From NCBI GenBank assembly GCA_964581295.1, contig CAZONX010000003.1:2406-66405 (forward strand): a DNA stretch of 64,000 nucleotides, in the 5' to 3' direction. Under the pieces are notes generated by a model. That model made no database searches. It saw nothing but the letters and a program-made list of their open reading frames with translations, and was not told the origin of the DNA. Positions 2,743-23,436 of the stretch are shown in pieces. Made by a program: the position numbers and the translations under genes. The stretch comes from an uncultured Acidimicrobiaceae bacterium. GTDB lineage: Bacteria; Actinomycetota; Acidimicrobiia; Spongiisociales; UBA5794. The first letter of the stretch is position 1; every line of letters begins with the position of its first letter.

Positions 2743-4988
2743 GCCTGCTCCCTCATTGCTTCCCAGACGCGTTGTGGCGTGAGCGGCAGGTCGCGTATCA
2801 CCAACCCGGTGGCGTCGCGTACCGCGGCGCCGACGGCAGGAGCCGTGCACAGCAGGCTCCCCTCGCTCACACCCTTGACTCCGTACGGACCGGGTCCGTC
2901 GTGGTTCTCGATGCTCTCGCTGATCAACTCGGTCGGTAGGTCCTTGCTGGTAGGAATCCGGTAGTCGATCGCTCCGAGGTTCCTGACGCGGCCTTCCTCA
3001 TCGAGGATGTAGCCCTCCATCAGCGAATGCCCAAGGCCCATGATTGCGGCGCCGTCGTCCTGCCCGTGCACCTGCTGCGGGTTGAGGGCGGTGCCGATAT
3101 CACCGACGGTGACGTGCCGGATAATGGTGATCTCTCCGGTCTCGCCGTCGACCTCCGCCTCGATCGCAGTGCAGTTGAATTCGAAGAATGCTGCCGACCC
3201 GGCGAGCGGATGGCTCGGCACCTTGTCTTTGCGCATCTCACCGTTGCCGATGACTTCGCCGCCGAGCGGAGCGAGCGCCTGCTGCACTACCTCCACGATC
3301 GGCAGGTCTTCGCCTGCGAGACGCACAACGCCGCCGTCAACTTCGATGTCGTCTTCGTCTACGCCGTGGACTCGAGCGGCCATGGCCTTGACCTTGCCGT
3401 GAATGTCCTTGCAGGCGCGGTACACCGAGGTGCCCATGAGCACGGTCGAGCGACTGGCCGATGTCTGCTGGTCGTATGGCACCGTCGCGGTGTCACCCAT
3501 GATCACGTTGACACGTTCGATGGGGATGCCCATCTCCTGTGCAACGATCTGAGCGAACACGGTCCTCGCGCCCTGGCCCATGTCGGACGTCCCACTGAAG
3601 AGGATTGCGCTGCCGTCGTTGAGCAGCCGCACCGTCGAGTAGGACAGTCCGGTCGTCGGCCCCGACTTGAGACCGAGGGCAATGCCCCGGCCGCGACCCT
3701 CCGGAAGCGGCTTGTCCCATCCAATTAGCTCGGCGGCCTTGTCGATTGTCTCGACCCAATTGCCGTCGGCCGGCGTGTCCCCCGGCACGAATTCGTAGCC
3801 CGGCTCCGGCAGATTCCGCTTCCTGATCTCGAGCCGGTCGATCCCCAGCTCGATCGCAGCCTCGTCGAGCGTGGACTCACGCGCCCAGGTGATCTGGGGA
3901 ACACCGAACCCGCGGAACGCGGTCGTGGGCGTGGTGTTCGACAGAATTGTGCGACCCATGATCTTGACGACCGGCACCTTGTAGGGACCGGCCGCGACAT
4001 ACGACGACTTGGCCGCCACTCGATCAGCGATATCGACGTATGCACCGATGAGATAATTGGTCTCGATATCGTTGTAGATCAGCGTGCCGTCGAGCGTCAT
4101 GCCCATCTTCACCCGAACGCGGGTCGACGGGCGACGGACGGCCTGGAACGTCTCTTCGAGCGACATGATCAGACGCACCGGTCGCCCGGTTGCGAGCGCC
4201 ATGTAGCACACGAGCGGTTCGAGCTTCGGGTGCTGTTTGCCGCCGAAGCCCCCGCCGGGGTCCGGAGCGAACACCCGCAACTTCGAGAGCGGGATATCGA
4301 GCAGGCCGGCGAGCGTCTTCTGGAGCTGGAACGGATGCTGAATCGTGCTCCACACGTTGAGTTCGTGACCGTCCGGTTGCGCGATGAACGCGTGCGGCTC
4401 GATTGCGAAGTGCGTGATCATCGGGAATTCGTACTCCCGCTCGATCACGTATTCGGCGTCGCCTTCCACGGCCTCGACGTCGCCCCAACCGAACTTGATC
4501 TCGCTCTTGATGTTGGTGTTAGCGAACGGCTCGCCCTGCCGCAGCGACGGATCCTGAACGAGCGACGCTCCGGGATCGAGGGCAGCATCGATGGAGAAGA
4601 CGGCGGGGAGCACCTCATACTCGATCTCGACGAGGGCGGCAGCCTCTTCGGCGATCTCTTTCGTCTCGGCTGCGACGGCCGCAACCGGTTCACCGTGGTA
4701 GTTCACCGTGTCAACCGCGAGGACCGGGCGGTCCGCGTACTGCGGGCCGAACCGAGGCATCGGCTTCGGCAGGTCGTCCGCCGTCATGATCAGCCGGACC
4801 CCAGGGACTTGCTCAGCCTTCGTGGTGTCGATAGAGATGATGCGCGCACGCGACTCGTCGATCTTGACGAGCTTGGCGTGCAATTCGTCGACGAGATGGA
4901 TGTCTGCGACGTATTGCTGGGCGCCGGTGACACGATCTCTTCCGCCGACACGGTTTGGTGAGGCTCCGACGAGCTCGTTGGCAGTCAT
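2739..4988 (-). CDS. molybdopterin-dependent hydroxylase large subunit (xanthine dehydrogenase / aldehyde oxidase family, CoxL/XdhA-like)
   Basis: 749 aa. Aldehyde-oxidase/XDH a/b-hammerhead plus MoCo-binding domains (GGGFGGK, FRGFGVPQ, …SGTSDMGQGARTVFAQIVAQEMGIP…). Lacks the CODH VAYRCSFR loop. Start at MTANEL (ATG 4988) overlaps the small-subunit stop (ATGA). Confidence 0.9.
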   Translation of the reverse strand: MTANELVGASPNRVGGRDRVTGAQQYVADIHLVDELHAKLVKIDESRARIISIDTTKAEQVPGVRLIMTADDLPKPMPRFGPQYADRPVLAVDTVNYHGEPVAAVAAETKEIAEEAAALVEIEYEVLPAVFSIDAALDPGASLVQDPSLRQGEPFANTNIKSEIKFGWGDVEAVEGDAEYVIEREYEFPMITHFAIEPHAFIAQPDGHELNVWSTIQHPFQLQKTLAGLLDIPLSKLRVFAPDPGGGFGGKQHPKLEPLVCYMALATGRPVRLIMSLEETFQAVRRPSTRVRVKMGMTLDGTLIYNDIETNYLIGAYVDIADRVAAKSSYVAAGPYKVPVVKIMGRTILSNTTPTTAFRGFGVPQITWARESTLDEAAIELGIDRLEIRKRNLPEPGYEFVPGDTPADGNWVETIDKAAELIGWDKPLPEGRGRGIALGLKSGPTTGLSYSTVRLLNDGSAILFSGTSDMGQGARTVFAQIVAQEMGIPIERVNVIMGDTATVPYDQQTSASRSTVLMGTSVYRACKDIHGKVKAMAARVHGVDEDDIEVDGGVVRLAGEDLPIVEVVQQALAPLGGEVIGNGEMRKDKVPSHPLAGSAAFFEFNCTAIEAEVDGETGEITIIRHVTVGDIGTALNPQQVHGQDDGAAIMGLGHSLMEGYILDEEGRVRNLGAIDYRIPTSKDLPTELISESIENHDGPGPYGVKGVSEGSLLCTAPAVGAAVRDATGLVIRDLPLTPQRVWEAMREQA

Positions 4989-5461
4989 TCCTTCCCCACC
5001 TTCGCTGCCGTGAGCACGGCCTCGGTGATCTGGAGATAGCCGGCGCATCGGCAGAGATTCCCACCGAGGGCCTCATGCACGTCGTCGATCGTCGGGTCGG
5101 GATTGCTTTGCAGAAGTGCATGCGCAGACATCAACTGACCCGGGATGCAGAATCCGCACTGCGGCGCACTGAGGTCGAGGAAAGCCTGCTGGAGGGCATT
5201 CAGGTGCCCGTCCGCCGCCAGGCCTTCCACACTCGTCACGTCTCGCCCGTCGATCTCGACGGCGAGCATCAGGCAGGAGTTCATCGGAATGCCATCGACG
5301 ACCACGGTGCACGCACCGCATTCGCCAACGACGCAGCACTCCTTGGTCCCGGTGAGCCCGAGTTGATCGCGCAGAACGTCGAGCAAGGTGTGGTTCGCGG
5401 CGACGTCGAACGCACGATCGCGACCGTTGATGGTTGCTTCGATGTGGACCGTTTCGCTCAT
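4985..5461 (-). CDS. (2Fe-2S)-binding small subunit of Mo-hydroxylase (CoxS/XdhC-like)
   Basis: 158 aa with both [2Fe-2S] cysteine clusters (GTKECCVVGECGACTV… and …CGFCIPGQ…CRCAGY). ATGA overlaps on both sides. Confidence 0.9.
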   Translation of the reverse strand: MSETVHIEATINGRDRAFDVAANHTLLDVLRDQLGLTGTKECCVVGECGACTVVVDGIPMNSCLMLAVEIDGRDVTSVEGLAADGHLNALQQAFLDLSAPQCGFCIPGQLMSAHALLQSNPDPTIDDVHEALGGNLCRCAGYLQITEAVLTAAKVGKE

Positions 5462-6330
5462 GACACTCCTTGCAGTTCTTGCAGGCGCGAAATCGCCCGC
5501 TCCACGGCGCGCGCACCGAGCACCCGCAGCATCGCCCGGCGATAGTCTGGACTCGCGCGCATGGATCGAACCGACGGGCTGGCGTCGGCGAAGATCTCCT
5601 CGAACACCGCAGCCTTGGCGTCGGCAGACGCGTCGGGGTCGGCAAGAACACCGGTGTCGTCCGTTCGCAGCCAGGCACGAGGCCCAACGCTTCCGAAGGC
5701 GACCTGCGTGACGCCCGCATCATCGACCGTGGCTGCAAGCGTGACCGAAGCCAGGTCGGTGCCCTTGCGTCGGGTCATCCTTTCGTACGCGGCGCCGATC
5801 GGGCGCGACGGCACGGTCAATTCGAGGGCGAAACCGATCTCGCCGTCGCGAAGATCGACCGTGCCAGGGCCAACGATGAAGTCGTCGATGGGGACCCTCC
5901 GGAGGCCTTCGGGTCCGGCGGCGATGACGATGGCGTCGTAGGCCAACAGCGGTGGTGCCGTGTCGGCGGCTGGCGATCCGTTGCAGATGTTGCCGAGCAC
6001 CGTGGCTCGATTCCTGATTTGCACCGAACCCACCACCACGGCGGCCTCGACCAGCGCAGGAAAGTGCTGGTTGATCCGCTCATCGACGACGACCTGGGTC
6101 ATGGTGGCCGCAGCGCTGAGCGTCACGGTGTCTCCATCCCAGGCCAACGCCGGATACAACTCGGCGACGCGCTTGAGATCGACCACCACCTTCGGCTGCT
6201 TCCACCGATCCCGCATGGCGATCACCAGATCGGTACCGCCGGCGAGGATCTCGGTCTCCGAGCCGCTTGTAGCGAGCACCTGAAGCGCTTCGTCAAGCGA
6301 CTCAGGACGTTCGTAGGAGAACTCCTTCAT
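5458..6330 (-). CDS. FAD-binding subunit of Mo-hydroxylase (CoxM/XdhB-like, FAD_binding_5 + CO_deh_flav_C)
   Basis: 290 aa, MKEFSYERPESLDEAL…AGGTDLV…RATVLGNICNGSPAADTAPPLLAYDA…. First of the three redox subunits. 21-bp gap to the upstream gene. Confidence 0.85.
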   Translation of the reverse strand: MKEFSYERPESLDEALQVLATSGSETEILAGGTDLVIAMRDRWKQPKVVVDLKRVAELYPALAWDGDTVTLSAAATMTQVVVDERINQHFPALVEAAVVVGSVQIRNRATVLGNICNGSPAADTAPPLLAYDAIVIAAGPEGLRRVPIDDFIVGPGTVDLRDGEIGFALELTVPSRPIGAAYERMTRRKGTDLASVTLAATVDDAGVTQVAFGSVGPRAWLRTDDTGVLADPDASADAKAAVFEEIFADASPSVRSMRASPDYRRAMLRVLGARAVERAISRLQELQGVS

Positions 6331-6351: not shown

Positions 6352-7239
6352 CTAGATGACCTTGTCTGCCTCGTCCATGATTGCCTGCGGGTTCGCTGCA
6401 CGAATCATGTAGAACGAGCGCGGTCCGCAGAAGCTCTCGGTGAAGTCGGCGCGTGACTGACGCAGCGCTTCGGTATCGGTCAGTGGCATCGTGTGCCCAG
6501 GAGCGAGCAACTCGTTCGTGAGGAAGTAGTTCTGGAGCGAATGGAAGTTCTGGAACTGCGCCTCGAACTGACCGAGTTCGGTCGTCGTCGGGTCGAAGTT
6601 GCCGTCGATGGCGGGAACGATCACGACGTCGACGTTGCTCGGCTCGTCGTAGTCCTCCCACGTCGGCATCTCGTCACCGAAGAAGATCTGCGCGCCGCGC
6701 TCGGGAGCAGCCTTGTCGGCCCGCTCGGTTCCCTTGGCACGGCTCTTGATGAAGACCGTCTTGGATCCCATGATCACGGTGCCCGAATCGTCGATGACCG
6801 TGGTCTCGGTCGAGACGAGCTTGCCACCGCGCCGGCACGCCTCGATCTGGCACATGCTCTTGCCATGGTTGGATTCGCCACCGAGGAACAAGACGGTCTT
6901 GCCCTTGTAGCGCACGGCCGATGAATGGAACGGATGCAGGCCCTTGGCCTCCATGCGCAACGCCAGCACGGTCACGATCGCCTTCTGGATCGGACCCTCG
7001 GCCCAGTCGCCGTTGAAGCGCATCGTGGTGCCGTCCCAGGCCACCGACTTCTCTGCCACGTCGCGGTCCCAGACCAGGTCGGGCTCGCTCAGCGTGACGT
7101 CCGACTCCAGCTGCACGGATGCGAGGCGGTAATTCATGAAGTCCATGTTCTGGAGCACGTGCTCGGGAACCTCGACGCCGATGACGTCGATCCGGATCCT
7201 TGCGCCGGCTGCCGACATTTCTTCGGTAAGCGTGGCCAT
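6352..7239 (-). CDS. HPr kinase/phosphorylase C-terminal-domain-like P-loop protein (function unknown), first gene of Mo-hydroxylase operon 1
   Basis: The internal segment GKTVLFLGGESNHGKSMCQIEACRRGGKLVSTETTVID matches the HprK C-domain P-loop pattern (G-x-S-x-x-GKS…L-E-x-x-x-RG-x-x-LV-x-D). Start at MATLTEEM (ATG 7239) with a strong GAAGGAGA RBS. The longer track ORF 6352..7437 has an Arg-rich, implausible N-terminus. Confidence 0.5.
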   Translation of the reverse strand: MATLTEEMSAAGARIRIDVIGVEVPEHVLQNMDFMNYRLASVQLESDVTLSEPDLVWDRDVAEKSVAWDGTTMRFNGDWAEGPIQKAIVTVLALRMEAKGLHPFHSSAVRYKGKTVLFLGGESNHGKSMCQIEACRRGGKLVSTETTVIDDSGTVIMGSKTVFIKSRAKGTERADKAAPERGAQIFFGDEMPTWEDYDEPSNVDVVIVPAIDGNFDPTTTELGQFEAQFQNFHSLQNYFLTNELLAPGHTMPLTDTEALRQSRADFTESFCGPRSFYMIRAANPQAIMDEADKVI

Positions 7240-7369: not shown

Positions 7370-8098
7370 CTAGCCCTCGGCAGCCTCCTCGGAGACCGCC
7401 TCCGAAACCGCTTCGGCAAGGCCTTCGCGCACCTCATCGAGCCCTTCGATTAGGAGGGCCGCCTCGGCCGCATGCGTACGGCTCCGTTCGGCGGCAAGCT
7501 CGGGGTCCTGGTCGCGAATCGCGGCGAGGAGTGGTTCGTGTCGGAGCGAAAGCCAGTGCAGGTCCACACCGGGGGTCGACGCTGTGACGTAGGTTCGCGA
7601 GAACGGCTCGAGCATCGACCACTGGCGTGCCAGAGTCTCGTTGTGCGCGGCGGCAACGATCCGCGCGTGGAACTTCGTGTTGTGGATGGCCTGGTCGTGC
7701 GCGTCGCCGCGAGCAGCGGCCTCTTTCATCGCCACATAGAGGGCTTCAAGATCGGCGATGCACTGTTCGGTTCGCCGCTCAGCCGCCAGCCTTCCGGCCA
7801 GCGCCTCGAGCTCGGCGCGCACCTCGATCGCTTCTGTGAGCTCTTGCCTCGTCGGCTTGCGCACTCGCGCACCCTTGTGGGGCTTCATCTCGACGAAGCC
7901 AAGGATTGCGAGGTCCCGCAGTGCTTCGCGCACCGGTGCCTGGCTGACACCGAGGTCGCGAGCCACCCGGGTCTCGACGATGCGAGACCCGGGCTCCAGC
8001 TCTCCTTCGAGAATCCACGTGAGAATGCGGTCCTTCACCCGCTCGGAGAGAACTTCTCTCTCCATGGGTTCCGGTTGCGTCTCTTGTCGATTCGTCAT
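7370..8098 (-). CDS. GntR-family transcriptional regulator (FadR subfamily, FCD C-terminal domain)
   Basis: N-terminal wHTH (…ETRVARDLGVSQAPVREALRDLAILGFVEMKPHKGARV) plus FCD-type helical effector domain. Start could be 8098 (MTNRQ) or 8065 (MEREV). Confidence 0.85.
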   Translation of the reverse strand: MTNRQETQPEPMEREVLSERVKDRILTWILEGELEPGSRIVETRVARDLGVSQAPVREALRDLAILGFVEMKPHKGARVRKPTRQELTEAIEVRAELEALAGRLAAERRTEQCIADLEALYVAMKEAAARGDAHDQAIHNTKFHARIVAAAHNETLARQWSMLEPFSRTYVTASTPGVDLHWLSLRHEPLLAAIRDQDPELAAERSRTHAAEAALLIEGLDEVREGLAEAVSEAVSEEAAEG

Positions 8099-8134: not shown

Positions 8135-9886
8135 CTAGAGGATCTCGACTACGCCGTTGGTCCCGTCGACCCGCAGGCGGTCGCCAGTCTTGATCTCACG
8201 AGTGGCAACGCCGGTGCCGGTGACGCCGGGAATGCCGAACTCGCGAGCCATGACTGCGGGGTGCGCAACCATGCCGCCGGCATCGCAGACGATGCCGCCG
8301 ATGATGGCGAACAACGGTGTCCACGCCGGGTTCGTCATCTGGCAGACCAGAATGTCGCCGCCCTTGACCTCGTCGAACTCGGCAGGCGAAGAAACGACCT
8401 TCGCCGTGGCTTCGATGACGCCAGGCGACACGCCGATACCTTCGATCCTGCCCTTGGTCTCCGTGTCGAAGTGCAGCTTCTCAGGGAAGCCCCACAGATT
8501 GAGATACGGGAACGCGAGCTGGTCTTCGGTCGCCGTGCCGATGAAGTCCGGCGGGCGGATCTTCTCTTGCTCGGCCCGGGTCGCACGCCGCTCGGCGACA
8601 ATGCTCTTGGCGTCGTAGCCCTCGGGATCACCCATCAAGTAGCGCAGTTCGTTGTAGCGCAAGTAGATCGTGTCGTCCGGCTCGTCCAACGCGCCCATCT
8701 CGACCAGCTTCCGGCCGATGCAGATCAGCACCACCCGAGCGTGCTGGTGCGTGCCCTGGTCGATATAGAAGTGGTGGTCGGGCGTGAGCGGGGCCATCTT
8801 CAGGTTGATCTCATTGGCTGCCTTCAGCGCCTCGAGGGCGTCGCCCTCTTCGATGCCTTCGAGCAACTCAACGGCTGCAGCCTGAATGTCCGTCTCGAGG
8901 TGGGCGACGACCGGCCGGTGGTCATAGTCCGAGTCCAGGTATCCCTTGATCACGTCAAGGACCGGTTCCGGTGTCTCGAATCGCGACGGGTAGATGAACT
9001 CGTGGCTCCACACGGCGTGCCAGCCGAACTCACGCTGGTAGGCCTTCAGGCCCTCGGCGATGAACCGGCGGCCGCGCTCGGTGCCCTCGAGAGCCGCCAA
9101 GATGTCGGCGCCGTTCTCGTTGACGAAGGCCGCCATGAGGACGTCGTCTTCCTTGATCTCGTCCTTCAGCGCCACCAGCAACTCGATCGCGTCCCAGTTG
9201 CGGTCGGCGTAGGAGTTCTGCAATCGGCCGAGGATTTCCTCGTGCTTCTGGGTGATCTCGCCGCCGAGCGCCTCTTCGAGCGTTGCTCGCAGCGCCAGGG
9301 TCGACGACAGCTGGGCGAAGTTGAGCATCCAGTGGATCTTCCAGTGACGATCGAGCATGTCGATCGCGTCCTCGAGGATCACGGCCCACTCCATGAGCGA
9401 GATGTTCTCGTAGTCGTCAATCTTCTCTTCGAGATAGGCGAGGTTTCCCGCCATTTCGGGCACGAGGCGATCCCTCCACCAATCGGGGAAGTTCGCTCCG
9501 TAGACCGGGAGCACGGCGCCGAGATAGGCGCCGATCTTCTCGGCGTAGTCCGGGTCGGCGTCCGTGGGCACCCGGGAGTCGTAGTGGAACCCGAGTTGTT
9601 CGCTGGGCACGGCCATATCCGGGTCCGGCGGGATCGCGGCCGTGAAGAGGTATCCGTTGACGACCTTGCCGACCCAGTCGGTCGCGAACGGCGTGCCGAA
9701 GCGACGGAACATGTGGTCGCACGTGAGCACCCAGTTGCCGATATCGTTGTACATCGGCGAGACGGGGCGCGGGCAGTGCAGGTCGTCGTAGACCCAGAAC
9801 AGCTTCTTTTCCTTCTCCGATTCCCACTCGACCGGGAAGCTCTCGTCTCCGAAGAACTCCGCCACAACCTTGCTGGTATCTACCAT
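8135..9886 (-). CDS. PEP-utilizing-enzyme mobile (phosphohistidine swivel) domain protein with large unknown N-terminal domain; PpsA (phenylphosphate synthase) / rifampin-phosphotransferase-like architecture
   Basis: The C-terminal ~90 aa is the PEP-utilizers phosphohistidine domain (…GGMVAHPAVMAREFGIPGVTGTGVATREIKTGDRLRVDGTNGVVEIL). The N-terminal ~490 aa matches nothing I recognise. No ATP-grasp domain in this protein. Start at MVDTSKVV (ATG 9886) with an AGGAAGGAGA RBS. The track's GTG 9913 is less likely. Confidence 0.7.
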   Translation of the reverse strand: MVDTSKVVAEFFGDESFPVEWESEKEKKLFWVYDDLHCPRPVSPMYNDIGNWVLTCDHMFRRFGTPFATDWVGKVVNGYLFTAAIPPDPDMAVPSEQLGFHYDSRVPTDADPDYAEKIGAYLGAVLPVYGANFPDWWRDRLVPEMAGNLAYLEEKIDDYENISLMEWAVILEDAIDMLDRHWKIHWMLNFAQLSSTLALRATLEEALGGEITQKHEEILGRLQNSYADRNWDAIELLVALKDEIKEDDVLMAAFVNENGADILAALEGTERGRRFIAEGLKAYQREFGWHAVWSHEFIYPSRFETPEPVLDVIKGYLDSDYDHRPVVAHLETDIQAAAVELLEGIEEGDALEALKAANEINLKMAPLTPDHHFYIDQGTHQHARVVLICIGRKLVEMGALDEPDDTIYLRYNELRYLMGDPEGYDAKSIVAERRATRAEQEKIRPPDFIGTATEDQLAFPYLNLWGFPEKLHFDTETKGRIEGIGVSPGVIEATAKVVSSPAEFDEVKGGDILVCQMTNPAWTPLFAIIGGIVCDAGGMVAHPAVMAREFGIPGVTGTGVATREIKTGDRLRVDGTNGVVEIL

Positions 9887-10233
9887 TCGGCAAATCTCCT
9901 TCCTCAACGCCACAGCGCCGGGACCGTCCCTTGCGTGGAACGACCTGATTCCGGCACCCTTTCTCGTCCGTCAGTCCTTCGTCGTGTCGTCCTACTCCTC
10001 TCCCGAGGCCGGTCGAACCGGCCCGGTGCGAACCACACAATGTGTGCATCGCACACGAGCCTTCAGTGCTTGCGGCGCAACGAAGATGGAGCAAGCTGCG
10101 GTCATGCTCTCAACCCCGGGACCGCGGGAAGATCGTTCGTGTCAAGGGGTGAATACGGTGTGGACACCGGCGCAATCGTACGAGATATCAGCATTTCGTT
10201 GACATCCAATGGCATCGGCACGGCGTATCCTCG

Positions 10234-10245
10234 ATAATCGATTAC
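10234..10245. promoter_or_regulatory. palindromic motif ATAATCGATTAc (site 1 of 3), ~350 nt upstream of the PpsA-like gene
   Basis: Extended match ATCCTCGATAATCGATTA is shared with site 3. Confidence 0.55.
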
Positions 10246-10298
10246 CCGCAGTTTACGAGTGCCGTCCCGTGTCCGTCAACTTTGCGAACGGTGTCGGA

Positions 10299-12605
10299 TC
10301 AGGTCGAGGGTTTCTCACCCGGCGGTAGGTCGGCCAATGCAGCAAGAACCTTCTCCGGGGTGACCGGCAGATCCCGAATACGAACGCCGATCGCGTCATA
10401 GAGCGCATTGGCGATCGCAGGCGGCGTCGCCGCGGCAGCCGGCTCTCCGACACCCTTGGCACCGAACGGGGCCTCCTCATGCACCGACTCGACGATGATC
10501 GGCACGATTTCCGGGAGATCCTGGATCGTCGCCACCTTGTAGTCGGCGAGGTTGCCGTTCTCGATGCGTCCGTCGCGAATAGAGAAGTGCTCGAGGATCC
10601 CATTTGAGAGGCCCATCACCACACCGCCCTCGATCTGCTGCTCGACCGTCATCGGATTGATGGCCTTGCCGACGTCGGCAGCCGCGGCCACCTTGACCAC
10701 GCTGATCACGCCGGTCTCGATGTCGACCTCGATCTCTGCGGCCTGGGTGCACAGCATCCAGAAGATGCTGCTCATCCACTCCTCACCGGGGTCGGCCTTG
10801 AGCAACGGCGACCGAGCTGACGAGAACCGCGATCCGGCCGTCATCGAGTAGCCCTCCCCCGCGAACTTCGCGAGCAGATCCCCAAGGGTGATCTTGACTT
10901 CATCGTCCAGGTCGTAGATGGAGCCGTTGCGAAGATCCAGGTCCTCCGCATCGACCTCGAGTACCTCGGCGGCCAGGCCCAGGATCTCCTCGCGGATCTC
11001 CGCGCCGGCAGCGACGATGGCGTTGCCCATGTGATAGGTGGTCCGACTCGAAGCGACCGGGCCGTTGTATGGCGTGAGCGCGGTGTCGGTGGCTGGCACC
11101 GACACGTGCTCGAGCGGGACACCAATCGCGTCCGCGGCCATCTGGGCGAGGACGGTGTCCTGCCCTGCGCCGATCTCCGGCGCCGCGCAGATCACCAGCA
11201 CACGACCGTCTTGTTCCATGTTGATCACGACGTTCGAACTCGACGGCGTCATCGTCGGCTTGATCATCGTGGCGATGCCCTTGCCGCGGCGCAGGTGCGG
11301 CGCCGGTTCGCGCTCGACCGATCCCCAGCCGATTTCGGCAGCCGTTCGTTCGATGGTCTCGGTGAGGCCGACGCTGTGCATGATCTGGCCGTTGAGGTAG
11401 GAATCGCCTTCCACGTATCCGTTCTTCAGTCGGATTTCGACCGGATCGAGATTCAGCTGCGCGGCGATCTCGTCCATCTGCGTCTCACACGCCCACGTCA
11501 CTTGGGTCGTGCCGTAACCGCGGTAGGAACCGGTGATCGCCTTGTTGGTGTAGACCTGCCGCGACAGGATTTCGATATTGGGGATGCGATACGGCCCGAC
11601 GATCGTCTGCGAGCCGCGGATGGCGACGCCGACGGTGTAGGCCGTGTAAGCCCCGCTGTCCCAGAGCACTTCGGCGCTCCTGGCGATCATCAGGCCGTCG
11701 CTGTTCACCCCGGTCTTCAGCTTCATGATCGCCGGCACGCGAAGCTGCGAGGCGATGAGGCACTCCTCGCGGGTGAACTCGACGCGGACCGGACGACCGC
11801 CGGAATTGCGCGCCAGGACGACCGCGATGGCCTCGGCGATTGGGACACCCTTGCCACCGAACGACCCACCGACCTGCGCAACGATCAGCCGGACCTGGGT
11901 GCTGGAGACGCCCAACCCTTCTGCGAGCTCGTTGCGGAGCAGGAATGGGCGATCGGTCGATACCCACAGGGTGTAGCCACCCGAACCCGCGTCGTACTCG
12001 GCGATCGCGGTGTGGACCTCGAGTGCGACATGGCTGATCGCGTGCGCCGAGTACTCCCCTTCGACCACCAGATCGGCGGCGGCGAAACCTTCCTCGACAT
12101 CGCCGCGCGAATACCGATAGAGCGTGTTGATATTGGTGTGGGGCACGATCTCATGCCCACCACGCTTGTAGGTGTGGAGATCAGGATGCACGAGTGGCGC
12201 GTCGGGATCGAGGGCGGCGCGCATGTCGACGATCGCCGGCAACTCCTCGTAGTCCACCGCAATGAGGTCGAGCGCCTCCTGTGCCTGCGCCTCGGTGGTC
12301 GCCGCGACCGCAACGACCGGTTCGCCGACATAGCGGACGCGGTCGATCGCGAGAAACGGTTGATCCTTGATCGCAGATCCGAACAACAGCGGGAAGTCGT
12401 TTCCCGTGACGACTGCCTCCACTCCCGGAGCCGACCGGGCGCGCGCTACGTCGATCGACACGATCCTGGCGTGTGGGTGTGGGCTTCGTAGAACCGCGCC
12501 GTGCAACATGCCAGGCATGGACAGGTCGACGGCGTAGACCGCGCTGCCTGTCACCTTGTCGACTGAGTCAACGCGTGGTGCCCGCGTGCCTACATACGTC
12601 GTCAT
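10299..12605 (-). CDS. molybdopterin-dependent hydroxylase large subunit, paralog 2 (XDH/aldehyde oxidase family)
   Basis: 768 aa, same domain architecture as 2739..4988 (…VVGGSFGGKG…, YRGYGTTQ, …AAPEIGAGQDTVLAQMAADAIGVP…). Start at MTTYVGT overlapping the stop of the 2Fe-2S gene (ATGA). Confidence 0.9.
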   Translation of the reverse strand: MTTYVGTRAPRVDSVDKVTGSAVYAVDLSMPGMLHGAVLRSPHPHARIVSIDVARARSAPGVEAVVTGNDFPLLFGSAIKDQPFLAIDRVRYVGEPVVAVAATTEAQAQEALDLIAVDYEELPAIVDMRAALDPDAPLVHPDLHTYKRGGHEIVPHTNINTLYRYSRGDVEEGFAAADLVVEGEYSAHAISHVALEVHTAIAEYDAGSGGYTLWVSTDRPFLLRNELAEGLGVSSTQVRLIVAQVGGSFGGKGVPIAEAIAVVLARNSGGRPVRVEFTREECLIASQLRVPAIMKLKTGVNSDGLMIARSAEVLWDSGAYTAYTVGVAIRGSQTIVGPYRIPNIEILSRQVYTNKAITGSYRGYGTTQVTWACETQMDEIAAQLNLDPVEIRLKNGYVEGDSYLNGQIMHSVGLTETIERTAAEIGWGSVEREPAPHLRRGKGIATMIKPTMTPSSSNVVINMEQDGRVLVICAAPEIGAGQDTVLAQMAADAIGVPLEHVSVPATDTALTPYNGPVASSRTTYHMGNAIVAAGAEIREEILGLAAEVLEVDAEDLDLRNGSIYDLDDEVKITLGDLLAKFAGEGYSMTAGSRFSSARSPLLKADPGEEWMSSIFWMLCTQAAEIEVDIETGVISVVKVAAAADVGKAINPMTVEQQIEGGVVMGLSNGILEHFSIRDGRIENGNLADYKVATIQDLPEIVPIIVESVHEEAPFGAKGVGEPAAAATPPAIANALYDAIGVRIRDLPVTPEKVLAALADLPPGEKPST

Positions 12606-13069
12606 CTGCGGACTCCTTTGATCTCTGCGACCGCTTCGAGGATCTTGGGATAGGCGCCGCATCGGCAGAGGATGCCGCTGAGCGCCTTCTTCACGTCCTC
12701 GATCTCCGGTTCATCGTCCCTTCTGAACATAGCAGTGGCTGTCAAGACCATGGCAGGGGTGCAGAACCCGCATTGGAACGCCCCGGTGTCGATGAATGCC
12801 TGCTGCACGTCGTTGAGTTCGCCGTCCTCGGCGAGGCCCTCCACGGTCTCGATGCTGGCACCGTCCGCGTCGCCGGCCAACACCAGGCACGAGGTGACCG
12901 GTTCACCGTCCGCGAGCACCACGCAGGTGCCGCACTCGCCGACTCCGCAGCCTTCCTTCGTCCCGGTGAGGAACACCTGCTCGCGTAGGACCTCGAGAAG
13001 AGTGAGGCGCGGATCGGTCGTGAGTTGGCGGGAAACTCCGTTCACCGTGACGTCGATAGTGATCGTCAT
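12602..13069 (-). CDS. (2Fe-2S)-binding small subunit, paralog 2
   Basis: MTITIDVTVNGV… with GTKEGCGVGECGTCVV and CGFCTPAM…CRCGAY cysteine clusters. True start at M82 of the track ORF (ATG 13069), ATGA-overlapping the FAD-subunit stop. Confidence 0.9.
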   Translation of the reverse strand: MTITIDVTVNGVSRQLTTDPRLTLLEVLREQVFLTGTKEGCGVGECGTCVVLADGEPVTSCLVLAGDADGASIETVEGLAEDGELNDVQQAFIDTGAFQCGFCTPAMVLTATAMFRRDDEPEIEDVKKALSGILCRCGAYPKILEAVAEIKGVRR

Positions 13070-13956
13070 GCCGCCACCTCCACACCCGCGGATTGCACGG
13101 CGGCACGAAGGGCCCGCAACGTGAGCACCCTCGCAAGCGTCGTGCGATACGACGCGCTGGCGCGCATGTCGCCGATCGGCTTCGCCTCGCCGGCGGCGGA
13201 CTGGGCGACAGCGGCGAGTGCCGCCTCCACTGGAATCTCCGAGCGAAGCAGCGCTTCGCTGGCAACCGCGCGAAATGGGGTCGGCCCGAGCGAGGCAAGG
13301 GCGATCATGCATTCGAGGACGCGGCCGTCGACGCCGAGAACCACACTCGCCGATACCCCTGCAAGAGCGATGTCGGTCCCGCTCCCCCGCTTGCCCAGCT
13401 TCACGTGCGCCGAGCCGAAACCCGCAGGCGGATCGGGGAGGAAGATCGACGTGATGATGTCGGACGACGCAAGCGTCGTCGCTCCCGGGCCCGAGTACAG
13501 ATCCTCCACCAAATCATCGCGAGCGCCGTCACGCCCCTCGATGGTGGCGACCGCCCGATGGACGATCAGCGCCGGTCCGAGATCGGATGCCGGCGACGCG
13601 CGACCCACATTGCCGCCGATCGTCGCCAGCGCCCGCACCGGCGGCGACGCAAGGATGGACGCGGCCTGAGCGAGTCCGGGGCAGCTCTCCTGCACGAGCG
13701 ATGACTGCTCGACGAGGGTCACCTTGGTCAGGGCTCCGATACGGATGCCTCCCTCGGCCGCTTCGATTCCGGTGAGGCCTGGCACGCGTTTGAGGTTCAC
13801 AACCGTCGACGGACGCATCCGGCCCGTCTTCATGTCGACGATGAGATCGGTCCCGCCGGCGAGCACGCGGGCGTCGTCCGGAGCGTCGGCGAGAACGTCG
13901 ATCGCTTCAGCCAGCGACGTCGGTTCGTGGTAGTCGAATGCGCGAAGTCGCTTCAC
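13066..13956 (-). CDS. FAD-binding subunit of Mo-hydroxylase, paralog 2 (CoxM-like)
   Basis: 296 aa, MKRLRAFDYHEPTSLAEAIDVLA…AGGTDLIVDMK…ATIGGNVGRASPASDLGPALIV…. Confidence 0.85.
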   Translation of the reverse strand: MKRLRAFDYHEPTSLAEAIDVLADAPDDARVLAGGTDLIVDMKTGRMRPSTVVNLKRVPGLTGIEAAEGGIRIGALTKVTLVEQSSLVQESCPGLAQAASILASPPVRALATIGGNVGRASPASDLGPALIVHRAVATIEGRDGARDDLVEDLYSGPGATTLASSDIITSIFLPDPPAGFGSAHVKLGKRGSGTDIALAGVSASVVLGVDGRVLECMIALASLGPTPFRAVASEALLRSEIPVEAALAAVAQSAAGEAKPIGDMRASASYRTTLARVLTLRALRAAVQSAGVEVAA

Positions 13957-13978
13957 CGATCATCCTTCGTGTTGGTGG

Positions 13979-14368
13979 TCATCCGGTCTGATGCAGCAGT
14001 TCGAGCGTAACGCCGTCTGGTGTCTCGACGAAGGCGATCTCATAGCCGCCGGGTCCCGGGCGTCGCTCGTAGATCTTGAGACCCTGCTCAGCGAAGCGCT
14101 CGAGGTCGGCGTCGAGATCGTCCGTCTCGATCCCGACGTGTTCGAGCCCGAGGTAGGGGATCGGCGGCGGGTCGTTGATGGTGTCGTCTTCGCCGGGCGC
14201 CGGCGTGGTGATGTTGAGACGGACGCCGTCGAACTCGACAGGAACGAAGAGCATCGTCTTGAACTGAATCTCGGGGAGCAACGTGCCCCCGAACATGTCG
14301 ATCCACCATGCCGCGCTGGCGCGGGGATCTCTCGATTTGATGTGGATGTGGTGGAGGACGTGTGCCAT
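13979..14368 (-). CDS. VOC-family (glyoxalase/bleomycin-resistance/dioxygenase fold) protein
   Basis: ~130 aa from MAHVLHHIHIKSRD…GLEHVGIETDDLDADLERFAEQGLKI…. The upstream part of track ORF 13979..14521 is Arg/Pro-rich and unlikely to be coding. First gene of Mo-hydroxylase operon 2. Confidence 0.65.
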   Translation of the reverse strand: MAHVLHHIHIKSRDPRASAAWWIDMFGGTLLPEIQFKTMLFVPVEFDGVRLNITTPAPGEDDTINDPPPIPYLGLEHVGIETDDLDADLERFAEQGLKIYERRPGPGGYEIAFVETPDGVTLELLHQTG

Positions 14369-14549
14369 GGCTCTCCTTGTCTTCGGTCGTTCCCCGCGTA
14401 CGATCGCGAGTCGACGACCCCGCTGCGGACGATCGGTTTCGGTCGCCGACGTTAGCCAGCCGGGCGCGCCCGGCCGAAAGGGGTCTGCCGAAGATCGGCT
14501 CATCACCGTCGCCGACGGCATGAATTGACGGACGGCAATTCTATTTCAT

Positions 14550-14561
14550 ATAATCGATTAT
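14550..14561. promoter_or_regulatory. perfect palindrome ATAATCGATTAT (site 2 of 3) in the divergent VOC-Mo-hydroxylase / Liv-ABC intergenic region, overlapping a TATAAT -10 hexamer
   Basis: TTGACG(14525-14530)-N18-TATAAT(14549-14554) on the plus strand. The palindrome begins inside the -10. Confidence 0.6.
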
Positions 14562-14727
14562 CAATGAAAGATTATTCCGTCGCAAGCATCGCGACACGCC
14601 GGGCGGACGATGCTGCACCTTCGTGTTCATGCCGTCGCATACACGGCATCGGTTCCGGCGTGGTATCTAGCGTGATTCAGCCGCTGGAGCCAACGGCTCC
14701 ACGTGGACGAGAAGAGGCCAGGGGCTG

Positions 14728-15600
14728 ATGGACATCATCTCCGACTCAATCGTTATTGGCCTGACGGAGCAGGCGCCCCTCATCCTCGCCGCCATGGGCT
14801 TCGCACTCCTCTACCGACTCACGGGCCTCATCAACGTGGCGTACTCGGAGACGATCACGCTCGGCGCCTACATGGGGATGTGGATCAACACCACGTTCGA
14901 GCTCAACTTCTACACCATCCTGATCCCGACCGGGATTGCCGCAGGGCTGATCAGCGTCGCCACCTACTTCGCGGTCTTCCGTCCGGCCAAGCTTCGCAAC
15001 GTCGGCGCCCTCGAAATGATCATCATCTCGTTCGGGCTGTCCGTGTTCCTCCGTCACGGCCTGCAGTTCATCTTCGGCTATCCGGTTCGGTTCTTCGATG
15101 TCCCGGCCCCGGACACGATCTTCGTACTGGGCGTCGGCGTGTCATCTTTCCGCCTCGTCGCCGTCGCCAGCGTCTTCATCCTCGCCTTCGGGCTCTACTG
15201 GTTCATCCAGAAGACGAGCTACGGGCTTCAGATCCGGGCCCTGGCGAGCGATGAGGATCTGGCGCAGGTCAGCGGAATCCGGCCAATGGCCGTGACCGTT
15301 CTCATTTGGTTCCTCGCCGGTGTCGCCGGTGGCCTCGCCGGTGCCTTCTACGGCGTCGGCTCTTCGGTCGCCCCGCTGCTCGGATGGCGCCAGTTCCTGT
15401 TCATCCTGCTGGTCGTCCTGGTCGGCGGGGCCAAGAACATCGGCGGCGTCATCATCGCCGGCGCGGTGACCGCCATCTCACTGACGTTCATGACGCTCCA
15501 GTTCGGCCAGGCGCTGTACGGCCAGATGATCCTCATCGTTGTGTTTGTCATCATCTTGAAGGTCCGCGGCACACGGTCGGCCGAAGCGGGGAAGGTGTAG
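14728..15600 (+). CDS. branched-chain-amino-acid-type ABC transporter permease (LivH-like)
   Basis: 290 aa polytopic membrane protein with typical LivH/BPD_transp_2 sequence. Follows a TTGACG-N18-TATAAT promoter-like element. Confidence 0.85.
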   Translation: MDIISDSIVIGLTEQAPLILAAMGFALLYRLTGLINVAYSETITLGAYMGMWINTTFELNFYTILIPTGIAAGLISVATYFAVFRPAKLRNVGALEMIIISFGLSVFLRHGLQFIFGYPVRFFDVPAPDTIFVLGVGVSSFRLVAVASVFILAFGLYWFIQKTSYGLQIRALASDEDLAQVSGIRPMAVTVLIWFLAGVAGGLAGAFYGVGSSVAPLLGWRQFLFILLVVLVGGAKNIGGVIIAGAVTAISLTFMTLQFGQALYGQMILIVVFVIILKVRGTRSAEAGKV

Positions 15601-15604
15601 CGCC

Positions 15605-16555
15605 ATGAATCTGGACTGGCTCGACGCATTCCTCGTCTACGGACTCTTCTCAGTCGTCATGGTGATCGGCCTGGCGCTGCTGCTTCACCTGCAACTCGGG
15701 CTCGCCCGCATCGCCAACTTCGGCATCGTGGGCTTCTGGGGCCTCGGGATGTACTCATTCGGCGTTCTGTTCGTCAAGGTCGATTGGCCGTTCGGAGAGA
15801 TCTGGGCGTTCCTGATCTCGATTGCCTTCGCGACACTCGTTGCCGGACTCGCCGGACTCGCCGTTGGATGGGTGATTGCCGACCTCGATATCGACGGTGT
15901 GCTGGTCGGCACGCTCGGCTTCGCTACGTGCGTAGCTCTCTTTGCGACGGCCGAACAGGACCTGACCGGCGGAGCCCTCGGTATGGGCGGACTCGGATTC
16001 CCCTACGACATTGGCAGCGTCAAGGCGAACGAGACGTTGTGGCTGGTCATCTTGACTGTCGTCGTTGGCTTGATCCTCTACTACGTGTCTCGCGTCCACA
16101 GGTCGCCATACGGTCGGTTGCTCATCGCGATCGGAGACAACGAGCCGCTGGCCCGCAGCCTCGGCAAGCAGTCGTTCCGGACGAAGCTGTGGTTGTTCGC
16201 AGGAAGCTCGGCGGTCATGGGTCTCCTTGGGGCGATGTTCGGCGTGATGGAGCGTTTCCTCGACATCGGCAACCTCGGCATCGACATCACCCTGGCAGTC
16301 ATGGTGGGGTTGGTGCTCGGTGGCGTCACCCGAACCTGGGGAGCCGTCGTCGGCGTCGTACTCACCGTGGCCGTATTCGACATTCTCCTTCAGTCCTACC
16401 TGCCGCTCCCCCAGTCGTGGTACGGCCAGGCAATCCCGAACCTTCGGGAGATGACGTTCGGCGCCGCACTCATTCTGGTGCTCATGTTCCGACCGTACGG
16501 CGTGCTCGGCCAGATGCGAAGAGACAAGCTGATGCGGAGGTTGCATGGTGGGTGA
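15605..16555 (+). CDS. branched-chain-amino-acid-type ABC transporter permease (LivM-like)
   Basis: 316 aa polytopic permease. 4-bp gap from the previous permease. Confidence 0.85.
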   Translation: MNLDWLDAFLVYGLFSVVMVIGLALLLHLQLGLARIANFGIVGFWGLGMYSFGVLFVKVDWPFGEIWAFLISIAFATLVAGLAGLAVGWVIADLDIDGVLVGTLGFATCVALFATAEQDLTGGALGMGGLGFPYDIGSVKANETLWLVILTVVVGLILYYVSRVHRSPYGRLLIAIGDNEPLARSLGKQSFRTKLWLFAGSSAVMGLLGAMFGVMERFLDIGNLGIDITLAVMVGLVLGGVTRTWGAVVGVVLTVAVFDILLQSYLPLPQSWYGQAIPNLREMTFGAALILVLMFRPYGVLGQMRRDKLMRRLHGG

Positions 16556-17372
16556 CATGGACAACACCGCGCCCGCAGAAGAGCCCGTGAGCGACCACCC
16601 GAGTTCGCGCCCGACCGTTCGTGTGCAGGGCGCCATCAAGAGCTTCGGTGGGCGAGTCGTGGTCGACGTCGAAGACCTGACGCTGGGGACGCATTCCATC
16701 GAAGGGCTGATCGGCCCGAACGGAGCGGGCAAGACGACACTGCTGCGCATGATCATGCACGCCATCTCCCTCGACGAGGGAACGGTCGTGCTCTCATCCA
16801 ACGGCAATGGCGACGAGACCATTCTCTCGAACCTGCCGGCCAGCAGCATGGCCCGCAACGGCATCGTGAAGACCAACCAGGTCATCACCGACTTCGAACA
16901 ATTGACCATCCTCGACTCGATGCTGCTCGCGGTCGACCAGCCATCCGACGAGCGTTCCTTCGCCATCTATCGCGAGTCGGGCCTCTACGCCGACCACATC
17001 GGTGAGATCCAGTGGTATCTCGACCAATTCGACTTCGAGGACCCCTACGGGTTCGCAAACTCCGCCGGTGAGAAGAAGCTGCTCGACATTATTCGATGTC
17101 TGCTGCTCAAGCCTCGCGTCCTGCTTCTCGACGAACCGACCGCAGGTCTCCCCGATGACATCCGCGATCAGATCATGGAACTGATCAAGCAGAAGGCCGC
17201 CAAGGAGAATATGGCCGTGGTGATCGTGGAGCACGACCTGCACGTCATCTGGAGCATGTGCGAATACGTTCACTTCATGGCGGAGGGGAGCGTTGTGTTG
17301 CAGGGCGAGCCCGCATTTATCCGAGATCATGAGACAGTGGTGGAGCAATACTTGGGAAGCGGCCATGTTTGA
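16545..17372 (+). CDS. ABC transporter ATP-binding protein (LivG-like)
   Basis: Walker A GPNGAGKTT, ABC signature, Walker B LLLDEPTAGL. Overlaps flanking genes. Confidence 0.85.
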   Translation: MVGDMDNTAPAEEPVSDHPSSRPTVRVQGAIKSFGGRVVVDVEDLTLGTHSIEGLIGPNGAGKTTLLRMIMHAISLDEGTVVLSSNGNGDETILSNLPASSMARNGIVKTNQVITDFEQLTILDSMLLAVDQPSDERSFAIYRESGLYADHIGEIQWYLDQFDFEDPYGFANSAGEKKLLDIIRCLLLKPRVLLLDEPTAGLPDDIRDQIMELIKQKAAKENMAVVIVEHDLHVIWSMCEYVHFMAEGSVVLQGEPAFIRDHETVVEQYLGSGHV

Positions 17373-18057
17373 AGCCACAGGTATCCAGAGCGGCTATACC
17401 GGCGTGACGGTGATCAAGGACCTCGACCTCGACGTAGAGCACGAGATTTTCGCGGTGCTCGGCGCCAACGGGGCAGGCAAAACAACTCTGCTCGCGACGC
17501 TGGCCCGGCTCATCCCGCTGACCGCCGGACAGATGACGTTCGATGGACAAGACATCACGACGGCCCACCCGTGGAACACGGCCGCGCTCGGTCTCGGCTA
17601 CGTGCCCCAGGAGAAGGGCGTCTTCGCCGATCTGACGGTGTTGGAGAACCTCCAGATCGGATCCATGATCGGCGACCGGAGTCAACAAGAACGGATCGAC
17701 GAGATCGTCGAACTCTTCCCCGACATCGGCAAGCGCCAGTCACAAATGGCCGGCACCCTCAGTGGCGGGGAGTCGCGCATGGTCGCCTGCGGACGAGCCT
17801 TGATGCAGGACCCAAAGATGCTTCTGCTGGACGAGCCAACCGCCGGGCTCTCGCCGCTCTACGTAGATACGTTCTTTGAAAAGATTCGCGAGATCCACGA
17901 GACGAAGGACGTCAGCATCATCCTGGCGGAACAGAACGCCACGAAGGCGCTCGAGATCTCAGATCGCGTCATGGTGCTGAGCCTCGGAGAGGCATCCGAA
18001 GTGCTCGATGCCGGTGAATGGACCACCGACAAGCTCAAGGAGGGTTACCGGATCTGA
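17365..18057 (+). CDS. ABC transporter ATP-binding protein (LivF-like)
   Basis: Start at MFEATGIQ (ATG 17365) overlapping the LivG stop as ATGTTTGA. Walker A GANGAGKTT, signature LSGGE, Walker B LLLDEPTAGL. Confidence 0.85.
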   Translation: MFEATGIQSGYTGVTVIKDLDLDVEHEIFAVLGANGAGKTTLLATLARLIPLTAGQMTFDGQDITTAHPWNTAALGLGYVPQEKGVFADLTVLENLQIGSMIGDRSQQERIDEIVELFPDIGKRQSQMAGTLSGGESRMVACGRALMQDPKMLLLDEPTAGLSPLYVDTFFEKIREIHETKDVSIILAEQNATKALEISDRVMVLSLGEASEVLDAGEWTTDKLKEGYRI

Positions 18058-18103
18058 TCGCTGTACGGCGATCCGAATGGAGGAAGAGAAAGGGAAGGGA
18101 CGA

Positions 18104-19585: not shown

Positions 19586-19617
19586 CACCCAGCCAGGCAA
19601 GTAGGAGCAAACAAACA

Positions 19618-19655
19618 AGAGGAGCGGCAGCGGGTCATCCCGCTGCCGCTCCTCT
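19618..19655 (+). terminator. intrinsic terminator hairpin after the ABC operon (17-bp perfect stem AGAGGAGCGGCAGCGGG / CCCGCTGCCGCTCCTCT, loop TCAT, then CTTCGT)
   Basis: Seen directly in the sequence 31 nt after the SBP stop. Perfect inverted repeat with a 4-nt loop followed by a T-containing tail. Confidence 0.7.
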
Positions 19656-19697
19656 TCGTACGGAGTCTTCAGGACACCCGTCTGGCTTCGATCCTCG

Positions 19698-19709
19698 ATA
19701 ATCGATTAT
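19698..19709. promoter_or_regulatory. perfect palindrome ATAATCGATTAT (site 3 of 3) upstream of the AhpD-like-PTP-PPDK-like-UPF0261 operon, overlapping a TATACT -10-like hexamer
   Basis: Context gATCCTCGATAATCGATTATACTgc, 75 nt upstream of the AhpD-like start codon. Confidence 0.6.
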
Positions 19710-19782
19710 ACTGCATCTGTCTCGCCCGTCCCGGGACGGATTCGCATTTGTCGAGTCCACAGCAACACACGGAGGACCACCC

Positions 19783-21193: not shown

Positions 21194-21256
21194 CCGAAGG
21201 GCACGGCACCCAGACGTGCGAAACGAACAAGAAGATCGATCGAGGAGACTGATGAG

Positions 21257-23395: not shown

Positions 23396-23436
23396 GTTCA
23401 AGCGCGGCAACCCGCGAACCCGAAGGAGCCTGACCA

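Follow-up and report, generated by a model that had tools for sequence, protein, structure and literature searches.

What recurs at three intergenic positions of this DNA, and which protein would recognise it? The window (the whole stretch analysed, 64,000 nucleotides of contig CAZONX010000003.1 from an uncultured Acidimicrobiaceae bacterium) has a G+C content of ~64% throughout, and for that reason an AT-rich 12-bp palindrome in it is conspicuous. A preliminary description had noted this palindrome three times and proposed it as the repressor operator of a small regulon. We find that it is part of a 19-bp element conserved at the promoters of one set of genes in Acidimicrobiia and Chloroflexota. 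The three copies in the window (O1, O2 and O3) probably all serve as operators of a single transcription factor, a GntR protein of the FadR subfamily (FCD) whose gene is at 7370-8098. The associated genes form four units: an operon beginning with RphL, a phosphoenolpyruvate (PEP)-utilizer protein, and continuing with GntR, the conserved protein unk295 and a molybdenum hydroxylase (Mo-hydroxylase; RphL-GntR-unk295-CoxM2S2L2); a VOC protein with a further Mo-hydroxylase (VOC-CoxM1S1L1); a Liv-type ABC importer; and a CMD-PTP-PPDK-like-UPF0261 operon (Table 1).

The repeated element

A pattern search of the window found the 12-mer at the coordinates reported before, with exact copies of ATAATCGATTAT at 14550-14561 and 19698-19709 and a one-mismatch form, ATAATCGATTAC, at 10234-10245. 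By chance 0.01 matches per window would be expected, and three or more matches occurred in 0 of 100 shuffles. The 18-nt extension said to be common to sites 1 and 3, ATCCTCGATAATCGATTA, is indeed shared letter for letter by 10227-10244 and 19691-19708, and the minus strand of site 2 carries a version of it with 3 mismatches. While the repeat is real, the 12-mer is not the conserved unit. This is a 19-bp pseudo-palindrome of three blocks, ATnATCGATnATCGA(T/G)nAT, of which the 12-mer makes up two thirds, and the interval 10227-10245 given in the preliminary description is exactly the 19-bp copy at site 1. The element consists of three ATnAT pentads in a 7-bp register with CG between them. Alternatively, it can be described as a pair of 12-bp dyads (ATnATCGATnAT) that overlap with an offset of 7 bp, the earlier 12-mer being one of them, or as a single dyad with an extra half-site.

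A frequency matrix from 188 unique sites collected around the core and an unseeded expectation-maximisation (EM) search of 77 RphL upstream regions agree on (A/G)TnATCGATnATCGA(T/G)nAT, i.e., ATnATCGATnATCGAKnAT, and both display the dyad symmetry. The CGA located 3' of the 12-mer is more conserved than the first three bases of the 12-mer itself. Information-content profiles are compatible with an even binding register (dyad on CG) and with an odd one (centred on the middle pentad, TCGATnATCGA).

Scored against the consensus ATNATCGATNATCGATNAT (16 informative positions, cut-off of at least 14 matches), only three positions of the window qualify, 10227 (14), 14550 (14) and 19691 (15), compared with a mean of 0.03 in Markov simulations; there is no further 19-mer copy in the 64 kb. 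O2 is followed one 7-bp register on by a weaker, overlapping copy (14557-14575, 13/16; ATAATCG ATTATCA ATGAAAG ATTAT). Over the 1.32 Mb of related loci, 116 positions reach 14/16 or more vs. 0-1 in simulations, and no site of that strength lies within coding regions of the homologous genes. An Rfam scan of the whole window gave no match, and a literature search for the motif strings returned primers and unrelated sequences only.

Position of the element at promoters

With gene starts corrected by homologues, all three copies remain intergenic, as the preliminary description held: site 1 is flanked by the stop of CoxL1 (10299) and the PEP-utilizer start (9886), site 2 by the starts of VOC (14368) and of the permease (14728), and site 3 by the end of the binding-protein gene (19585) and the start of CMD (19783). 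Immediately upstream of the operator at site 1 is a conserved promoter (TTGACG, 18 nt, TAAACT) that had been missed. Ten orthologous regions from Acidimicrobiia share its arrangement (TTGACG, a variable 18-nt spacer, TAnAnT, ~5-6 nt and the invariant operator), with the TTGAC and the TA of the -10 box invariant. O1 starts 5 nt past this -10 box and therefore covers the inferred transcription start.

At site 2, the -10 hexamer of the importer promoter, TATAAT, is the first ATnAT block of O2. The importer TTGAC and its 18-nt spacer are kept in L008, L001, L020, L019 and L025, and L005 and L006 also have them ahead of the sites at their ABC operons. Apart from the TTGAC, the -10 box and the operator, the region has diverged among relatives. 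The candidate -10 hexamer of the VOC operon on the opposite strand, GATAAT, is likewise inside O2, so that both divergent -10 boxes fall within one operator; in L005 and L006 a separate operator copy precedes VOC, at 20-110 nt from the gene start. O3 spans the spacer and the first half of the -10 box TATACT (19707-19712) of the CMD operon. The earlier remark that sites 2 and 3 overlie the hexamers TATAAT and TATACT thus agrees with our promoter scan at site 2 and with a reading of the sequence at site 3.

When the three promoter regions are aligned across loci, nothing but the operator and the -35/-10 boxes is invariant and the flanks are divergent, which is the outcome of the phylogenetic footprinting that had been suggested for the three intergenic regions. 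O2, for instance, is kept in L001, L008, L020 and others despite diverged flanks. Relative to -35/-10, the element is found in both orientations and in three registers (after, over and before the -10 box). This suggests a protein-binding site that occludes RNA polymerase rather than a promoter element.

Conservation in related genomes

Homologues of the VOC protein and RphL come from uncultured Acidimicrobiia. The same genes, in a partly altered order, are present on seven contigs that were found through VOC homologues (72-80% identity), with the motif at matching gene junctions. A genome-collection scan anchored on an RphL alignment gave 80 loci, the total related set being L001-L087; these 80 come from metagenome-assembled genomes (MAGs) of Acidimicrobiia (61-92% identity) and of Chloroflexota/Limnocylindria (58-61%). 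The motif is present in most of the 80, in both phyla, and the gene order RphL-GntR-unk295-CoxM2-CoxL2 is likewise kept in most loci. Where genes have been rearranged, the motif travels with them (L005, L006; tblastn synteny table).

Across loci, the motif precedes the RphL operon 49 times, the Liv importer 15 times, VOC 8, UPF0261 7, the PPDK-like gene 7, PTP 3 and GntR paralogues 2 times. An SDR gene is a recurrent target in other genomes, where further targets are an aldehyde dehydrogenase, the N-terminal half of transketolase, a transaldolase, an isocitrate/isopropylmalate-dehydrogenase-like enzyme, a GMC oxidoreductase and an alanine-racemase-like protein. The comparative analysis recovers the same four transcription units that the preliminary description had linked. 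Its proposal of a repressor operator for a small regulon is supported by the retention of the motif at orthologous promoters, its absence from homologous coding DNA, and its position on or abutting the -10 box or the inferred start.

The closest relatives that we found are the metagenome contigs L164 (Ga0316197_10012087) and L178, which share 91-95% identity with the window in their Liv, CMD and PTP proteins and have an identical O3; they rank above the best GTDB representative, L008 (92% in RphL). The MAG records L012, L032, L040, L042 and L077 are titled Saprospiraceae, Kiloniellales, Acidobacteriota or Steroidobacteraceae despite carrying a cluster of the Acidimicrobiia/Chloroflexota type, and their odd titles are probably binning or labelling errors. 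Several Chloroflexota loci (L048 at 3801, L054 at 7007, L061 at 5532 and L077 at 5440) encode, besides the GntR downstream of RphL, a second GntR paralogue with 48-53% identity to the window protein and its own upstream motif copy.

The probable cognate regulator

A GntR/FCD gene directly follows RphL in most loci and is elsewhere in the locus, or divergent, in a few. Of the loci that could be evaluated, GntR and the motif occur together in 57, both are missing from 12, the motif alone is found in 2, and GntR alone in none (Fisher exact test, 7e-12, uncorrected for phylogeny). The loci without either belong to at least four separate clades in a neighbour-joining tree of RphL. L074 has neither, whereas the same PPDK<>RphL intergenic region holds both in its sisters L072, L087, L046 and L052. 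As the GntR gene is co-transcribed with RphL, its product would be autoregulated through O1.

Two candidate regulators had been named from the sequence. Phyletic co-occurrence bears out the GntR(FCD) protein, but not the AraC/GyrI protein encoded at 24709-25716, which was rejected as the cognate regulator after a tblastn search with the window protein found no match in L001-L087. We also considered unk295 as the binder and set it aside, because it persists in the motif-less loci L057, L059, L070 and L085.

An anchor-free scan of a metagenome collection with ATNATCGATNATCGAKNAT returned 120 contigs (633 kb). A hidden Markov model of the GntR orthologues detected 8 GntR-like open reading frames (ORFs) on these contigs, the motif being no more than 500 nt from six of them and no more than 50 nt from five. 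Four of these five encode distant homologues (113-174 bits vs. >340 for orthologues), on contigs with 48-64% GC. The high-GC matches recover regulon genes (CMD-PTP-PPDK-UPF0261, Liv, RphL and SDR). Three low-GC contigs (L200 at 1855-1971, L202 at 3-98 and L160 at 1313-1359) contain tandem ATnATCG arrays of up to 15 units, whose repeat unit by itself makes them match the operator pattern and which have no connection with the regulon.

Recognition helix and comparison with the GntR family

Conservation among 61 orthologues is higher in the winged helix than in the FCD domain (mean top-residue frequency 0.79 vs. 0.61), and the recognition helix has the form G-x-S-Q-A-P-V-R-E-A-L with an invariant Ser-Gln (SQAPVREAL). 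The Ser-Gln pair also occurs in the distant motif-associated homologues L145, L168, L186, L201 and L102; it is found in 4 of the 5 GntR homologues within 50 nt of a motif (the exception is L091) and in three matches further off. The five closest solved GntR/FCD proteins have Arg at the Gln position, and FadR has Thr-Arg. All PDB relatives are GntR/FCD proteins (best 7xp0, E 4e-24), and the best NCBIfam model is phnR_burk, far under its cutoff. Literature searches with 7XP0 and with this combination of genes were unproductive.

Sites of the FadR subfamily have the consensus NyGTNxACNy, TKGT...ACMA, with 3 or 2 nt between GT and AC, and the favoured contacts are Arg-G and Gln-A (PMC4494728). In the operator, T-n-A-T-C-G-A-T-n-A resembles the class with 2-nt spacing, with A for G and, at a distance of 7 bp, another overlapping unit. 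Having TnAT rather than the canonical TnGT as half-site agrees with the preferences of Gln for A and of Arg for G (PMC4494728), and we infer that the Gln of the recognition helix reads that A.

The system resembles FadR-subfamily repressors (E. coli FadR, PdhR and LldR; B. subtilis GntR) in joining a GntR winged helix to an FCD domain, and its operators resemble theirs in being short, A/T-rich and dyad-symmetric and in lying on adjacent catabolic and transport promoters, including the regulator's own. A single mid-divergon site serving both operons, as O2 does here, is typical, and extra half-site boxes are frequent at GntR sites, 7-12 nt from the centre (PMC4494728); here the extra half-site is ~7 nt from the centre. 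Unlike the known members, the half-site is TnAT (or TCGAT) with no TKGT...ACMA, Gln replaces Arg, three equally spaced ATnAT blocks form two overlapping dyads, and the window protein has no characterised orthologue. The family nevertheless accepts the non-conforming BioR and NanR, and the BioR box, TTATMKATAA, is a non-canonical exception (PMC4494728).

The box of BioR, the alpha-proteobacterial GntR/FCD biotin repressor, is like the present element an AT-rich, even palindrome without GT/AC (PMC4494728). Several sites (L005, L006, L080) have a variant, ATTATCGATAAT, containing TTATCGATAA, which fits TTATMKATAA. In contrast, the main form is TAATCGATTA, as in the window copies, the element spans 19 bp with a second overlapping dyad, and the regulon is catabolic rather than made up of biotin genes and is hosted by Acidimicrobiia and Chloroflexota. 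The comparison concerns the operator pattern only, and the BioR box is a resemblance, not a sign of membership.

Alternative explanations

Could a different protein bind the element? The gene for AraC/GyrI lies beside one of the regulated operons, L058 and L060 have the motif without a nearby GntR gene, and the motif lacks a GntR-type GT/AC core; all of this would suit AraC/GyrI or an unlinked regulator. We regard this as unlikely, given that AraC/GyrI has no homologue in the 87 related loci, that GntR and motif were gained or lost jointly in at least four clades, and that distant GntR homologues picked up in the anchor-free scan have the motif immediately upstream. Nor is unk295 the binder, as it occurs in motif-less loci, and AraC-type sites are usually asymmetric or direct repeats. 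GntR might also bind the element but activate transcription, or act in both ways. Activation is known in the FadR family, E. coli FadR being an activator of fabA, and the weak -35 box at O3 is typical of activator-dependent promoters. Activator sites, however, are normally at or upstream of the -35 box, whereas the element overlaps the -10 box and/or the inferred start at every readable promoter and, at O3, occupies the spacer and the -10 box, which makes activation quite improbable.

The ATnAT blocks are themselves -10-like (TATAAT, GATAAT, GATTAT), and one block is the -10 box at several promoters, as would be expected if the conserved sequence were an extended -10/discriminator or the site of an alternative sigma factor. 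An element of this kind would not be expected in both orientations and in three registers relative to -35/-10, to have dyad symmetry, or to vanish together with the GntR gene while the operons persist, and we hold it to be highly improbable. It is scarcely credible that the copies are remnants of repetitive extragenic palindromes or miniature inverted-repeat transposable elements (REP/MITE), clustered ClaI-type ATCGAT methylation sites, or products of chance. Sites 1 and 3 do share 18 identical bases, ATCGAT is a common restriction/methylation palindrome, and tandem (ATnATCG)n microsatellites exist in the metagenome contigs L160, L200 and L202. Against this, the copies share 19 bp only, with unrelated flanks, and in the window and the related loci they are confined to promoters of one gene set, in two phyla; counts in the window and the related loci vs. 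simulations exclude chance.

Several observations weigh against the local GntR as the repressor. All source genomes are uncultured MAGs, and the case is built from sequence comparison. The co-occurrence statistic (Fisher 7e-12) is uncorrected for phylogeny, and the two loci of one clade that keep the motif, L058 and L060, have no GntR gene within the available 10-13 kb. The operator, both in the 188 sites and in the unseeded EM motif, is without the canonical GT...AC core, and the accessible part of the supplementary text of the FadR-subfamily compendium contains no ATCGAT-type motif (PMC4494728). The candidate VOC promoter is recognised by a 9/12 consensus match, and for the O3 promoter the scan gave no good -35 box, only a weak match. 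In the anchor-free scan 103 of the 120 contigs show no regulon gene, many of them being low-GC, and some matches are 7-mer microsatellites; the 19-mer alone is therefore not diagnostic outside high-GC genomes.

Repression by the GntR protein still seems the best explanation. The element, its conservation, its promoter positions and its co-occurrence with GntR are observed; physical binding, the sign of regulation, the binding register and the ligand are what we propose from them. Without ligand, one or more GntR dimers would sit on the operator and block RNA polymerase at four promoters. In GntR's own operon the operator would cover the transcription start; at the back-to-back VOC-CoxM1S1L1 and importer promoters the -10 hexamers would themselves be ATnAT blocks of the operator; and at the CMD-PTP-PPDK-like-UPF0261 promoter the operator would fill the spacer and overlap the -10 box. 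A pathway substrate or intermediate bound in the FCD domain would release the repressor and thereby induce ~21 uptake and catabolism genes. The inducing compound may be a hydroxy-aromatic or hetero-aromatic one that is activated by phosphorylation. Understood in this way, the system is a new representative of the well-known GntR repressor-operator type, with a non-canonical motif.

Genes of the window

The gene map (Table 1) was drawn up from Pfam and NCBIfam scans together with homologue lengths.

Table 1. Operators, promoters and genes of the 64-kb window.
Feature	Position	Strand	Description
Operator O1	10227..10245	-	GTAATCGATTATCGAGGAT, 14/16; invariant block in 10-sequence alignment; recovered by unseeded EM
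Operator O2	14550..14568	.	ATAATCGATTATCAATGAA, 14/16; common to two divergent promoters
Operator O3	19691..19709	+	ATCCTCGATAATCGATTAT, 15/16; sole invariant block in 6-sequence alignment
RphL-GntR-unk295-CoxM2S2L2 promoter	10250..10279	-	-35 TTGACG 10279-10274, 18-nt spacer, -10 TAAACT 10255-10250; promoter scan
Liv-type ABC importer promoter	14525..14554	+	TTGACG, 18 nt, TATAAT; 11/12 consensus matches
Candidate VOC-CoxM1S1L1 promoter	14557..14585	-	TTGCGA, 17 nt, GATAAT; 9/12 matches
CoxL2 (Mo-hydroxylase)	2739-ca. 4991	-	Pfam
CoxS2	4985-5461	-	Pfam
CoxM2	5458-6330	-	Pfam
unk295	6352-7236	-	conserved 295-aa protein, between GntR gene and CoxM2
GntR/FCD regulator	7370-8098	-	FadR subfamily; GntR winged helix PF00392 E 4.7e-15; FCD PF07729 E 1.9e-22; probable start Met12, at 8065
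RphL	8135-9886	-	583 aa; Rph_4th and PEP-utilizers (swivelling His) domains; start fixed by homologues
CoxL1, CoxS1, CoxM1	10299-13956	-	Pfam
VOC protein	13979-14368	-	129 aa; start from homologues; operon VOC-CoxM1-CoxS1-CoxL1 10299..14368
Liv-type ABC importer	14728-19585	+	two permeases, two ATPases and binding protein; Pfam
CMD/AhpD-like, PTP-like phosphatase, PPDK-like (ATP-grasp + His domain), UPF0261	19783-24675	+	Pfam, NCBIfam
AraC/GyrI-like gene	24709-25716	+	Pfam; begins 34 nt past UPF0261, same strand, no own operator

RphL, the first gene product of the O1-controlled operon, matches rifampin phosphotransferase 5fbs over its C-terminal 200 aa. The PPDK-like protein is similar to PPDK in the ATP-grasp and His domains, and the full-length UPF0261 protein matches MarK 9MPY (E 7e-62). 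No Pfam or NCBIfam family was found for unk295, which is encoded in most related loci of both phyla (57-88% identity), including those where GntR and the motif are missing; it may be an unrecognised accessory protein of the Mo-hydroxylase. An exact-protein lookup with the 180-aa VOC ORF found no match because this ORF is over-extended, homologues giving 129 aa. AraC/GyrI is possibly a window- or lineage-specific last gene of the O3 operon.

The stretch from O1 to the RphL start is a leader of ~340 nt (9887-10226, minus strand), the 3' part of which is kept in 10 Acidimicrobiia relatives (GAGAGGAGCAC, GGAGTCGGGAGTCTCAG). Just ahead of the ribosome-binding site it contains a hairpin, GCGCCGGA...TCCCGGCGC, in which 4 pairs have compensatory changes; this is the only local hairpin showing some covariation. 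The leader contains no conserved ORF, has no Rfam match and overall folds no better than shuffles (z -0.44). Given the lack of a conserved ORF, this z score and a single local covarying hairpin, it was dropped as a riboswitch candidate. An 18-bp G+C-rich perfect hairpin at 19617-19656, 32 nt past the binding-protein gene, separates the ABC operon from O3 and has a T-rich tail on the minus strand only.

Possible pathway and significance

UPF0261 is the domain family in which aromatic-monomer kinase activity was first shown; MarK phosphorylates acetovanillone and other aromatic monomers in an ATP-dependent manner (PMC12624787). Like the Acv/Hpe clusters, which break down aromatic ketones in a phosphorylation-dependent way (PMC12624787), and the kinase MarK of Novosphingobium, the regulon includes a full-length MarK-homologous UPF0261 protein, a phosphatase, and PEP-utilizer/PPDK-type proteins of the enzyme class of the AcvAB/HpeHI dikinases, the likeness of these being one of class only. 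Unlike those clusters, the regulated units contain no biotin-dependent carboxylase (AcvCDE/HpeCBA) domains by Pfam/NCBIfam, and they include two Mo-hydroxylases, a VOC protein and an AhpD-like protein, with SDR, aldehyde dehydrogenase, transketolase and transaldolase in other genomes.

One Acidimicrobiia clade without GntR and motif (L040/L041/L056 and L042, in the last at 11785-12726) has a stand-alone gene for a 313-aa PPDK_N (ATP-grasp) protein directly after RphL. This suggests that RphL and the stand-alone PPDK_N form a two-subunit (split) dikinase like phenylphosphate synthase or AcvAB/HpeHI. The gene content suggests a tentative route in which a hydroxylated aromatic or heteroaromatic compound would be imported, phosphorylated, oxidised by the Mo-hydroxylases and later dephosphorylated.

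A bolder interpretation, possible although we think it doubtful, is that the locus combines an undescribed FCD-GntR specificity class (Arg-to-Gln, with TnGT becoming TnAT), a 7-bp-periodic three-pentad operator doubling as -10 boxes, and an unrecognised phosphorylation-dependent pathway. Two overlapping registers of the operator might then be recognised, either by two dimers on different helix faces or by one dimer with an auxiliary subunit. The pathway would be one of a MarK-like kinase, a split PEP-utilizer dikinase, a phosphatase and two Mo-hydroxylases, common to abundant uncultured Acidimicrobiia and Chloroflexota.

Considered as a GntR operator of known type, the element is otherwise a standard comparative-genomics regulon prediction. 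Its use lies in indicating which genes belong together: two Mo-hydroxylases, a MarK-family UPF0261 protein, PEP-utilizer/PPDK-like proteins, a phosphatase and an ABC importer. The Arg-to-Gln/G-to-A correspondence offers a natural pair for probing the specificity rules of the GntR family. For uncultured Acidimicrobiia and Chloroflexota represented by MAGs, the operator provides a testable regulatory handle on a conserved gene cluster, and the ligand of the GntR protein would point to the substrate of the pathway.

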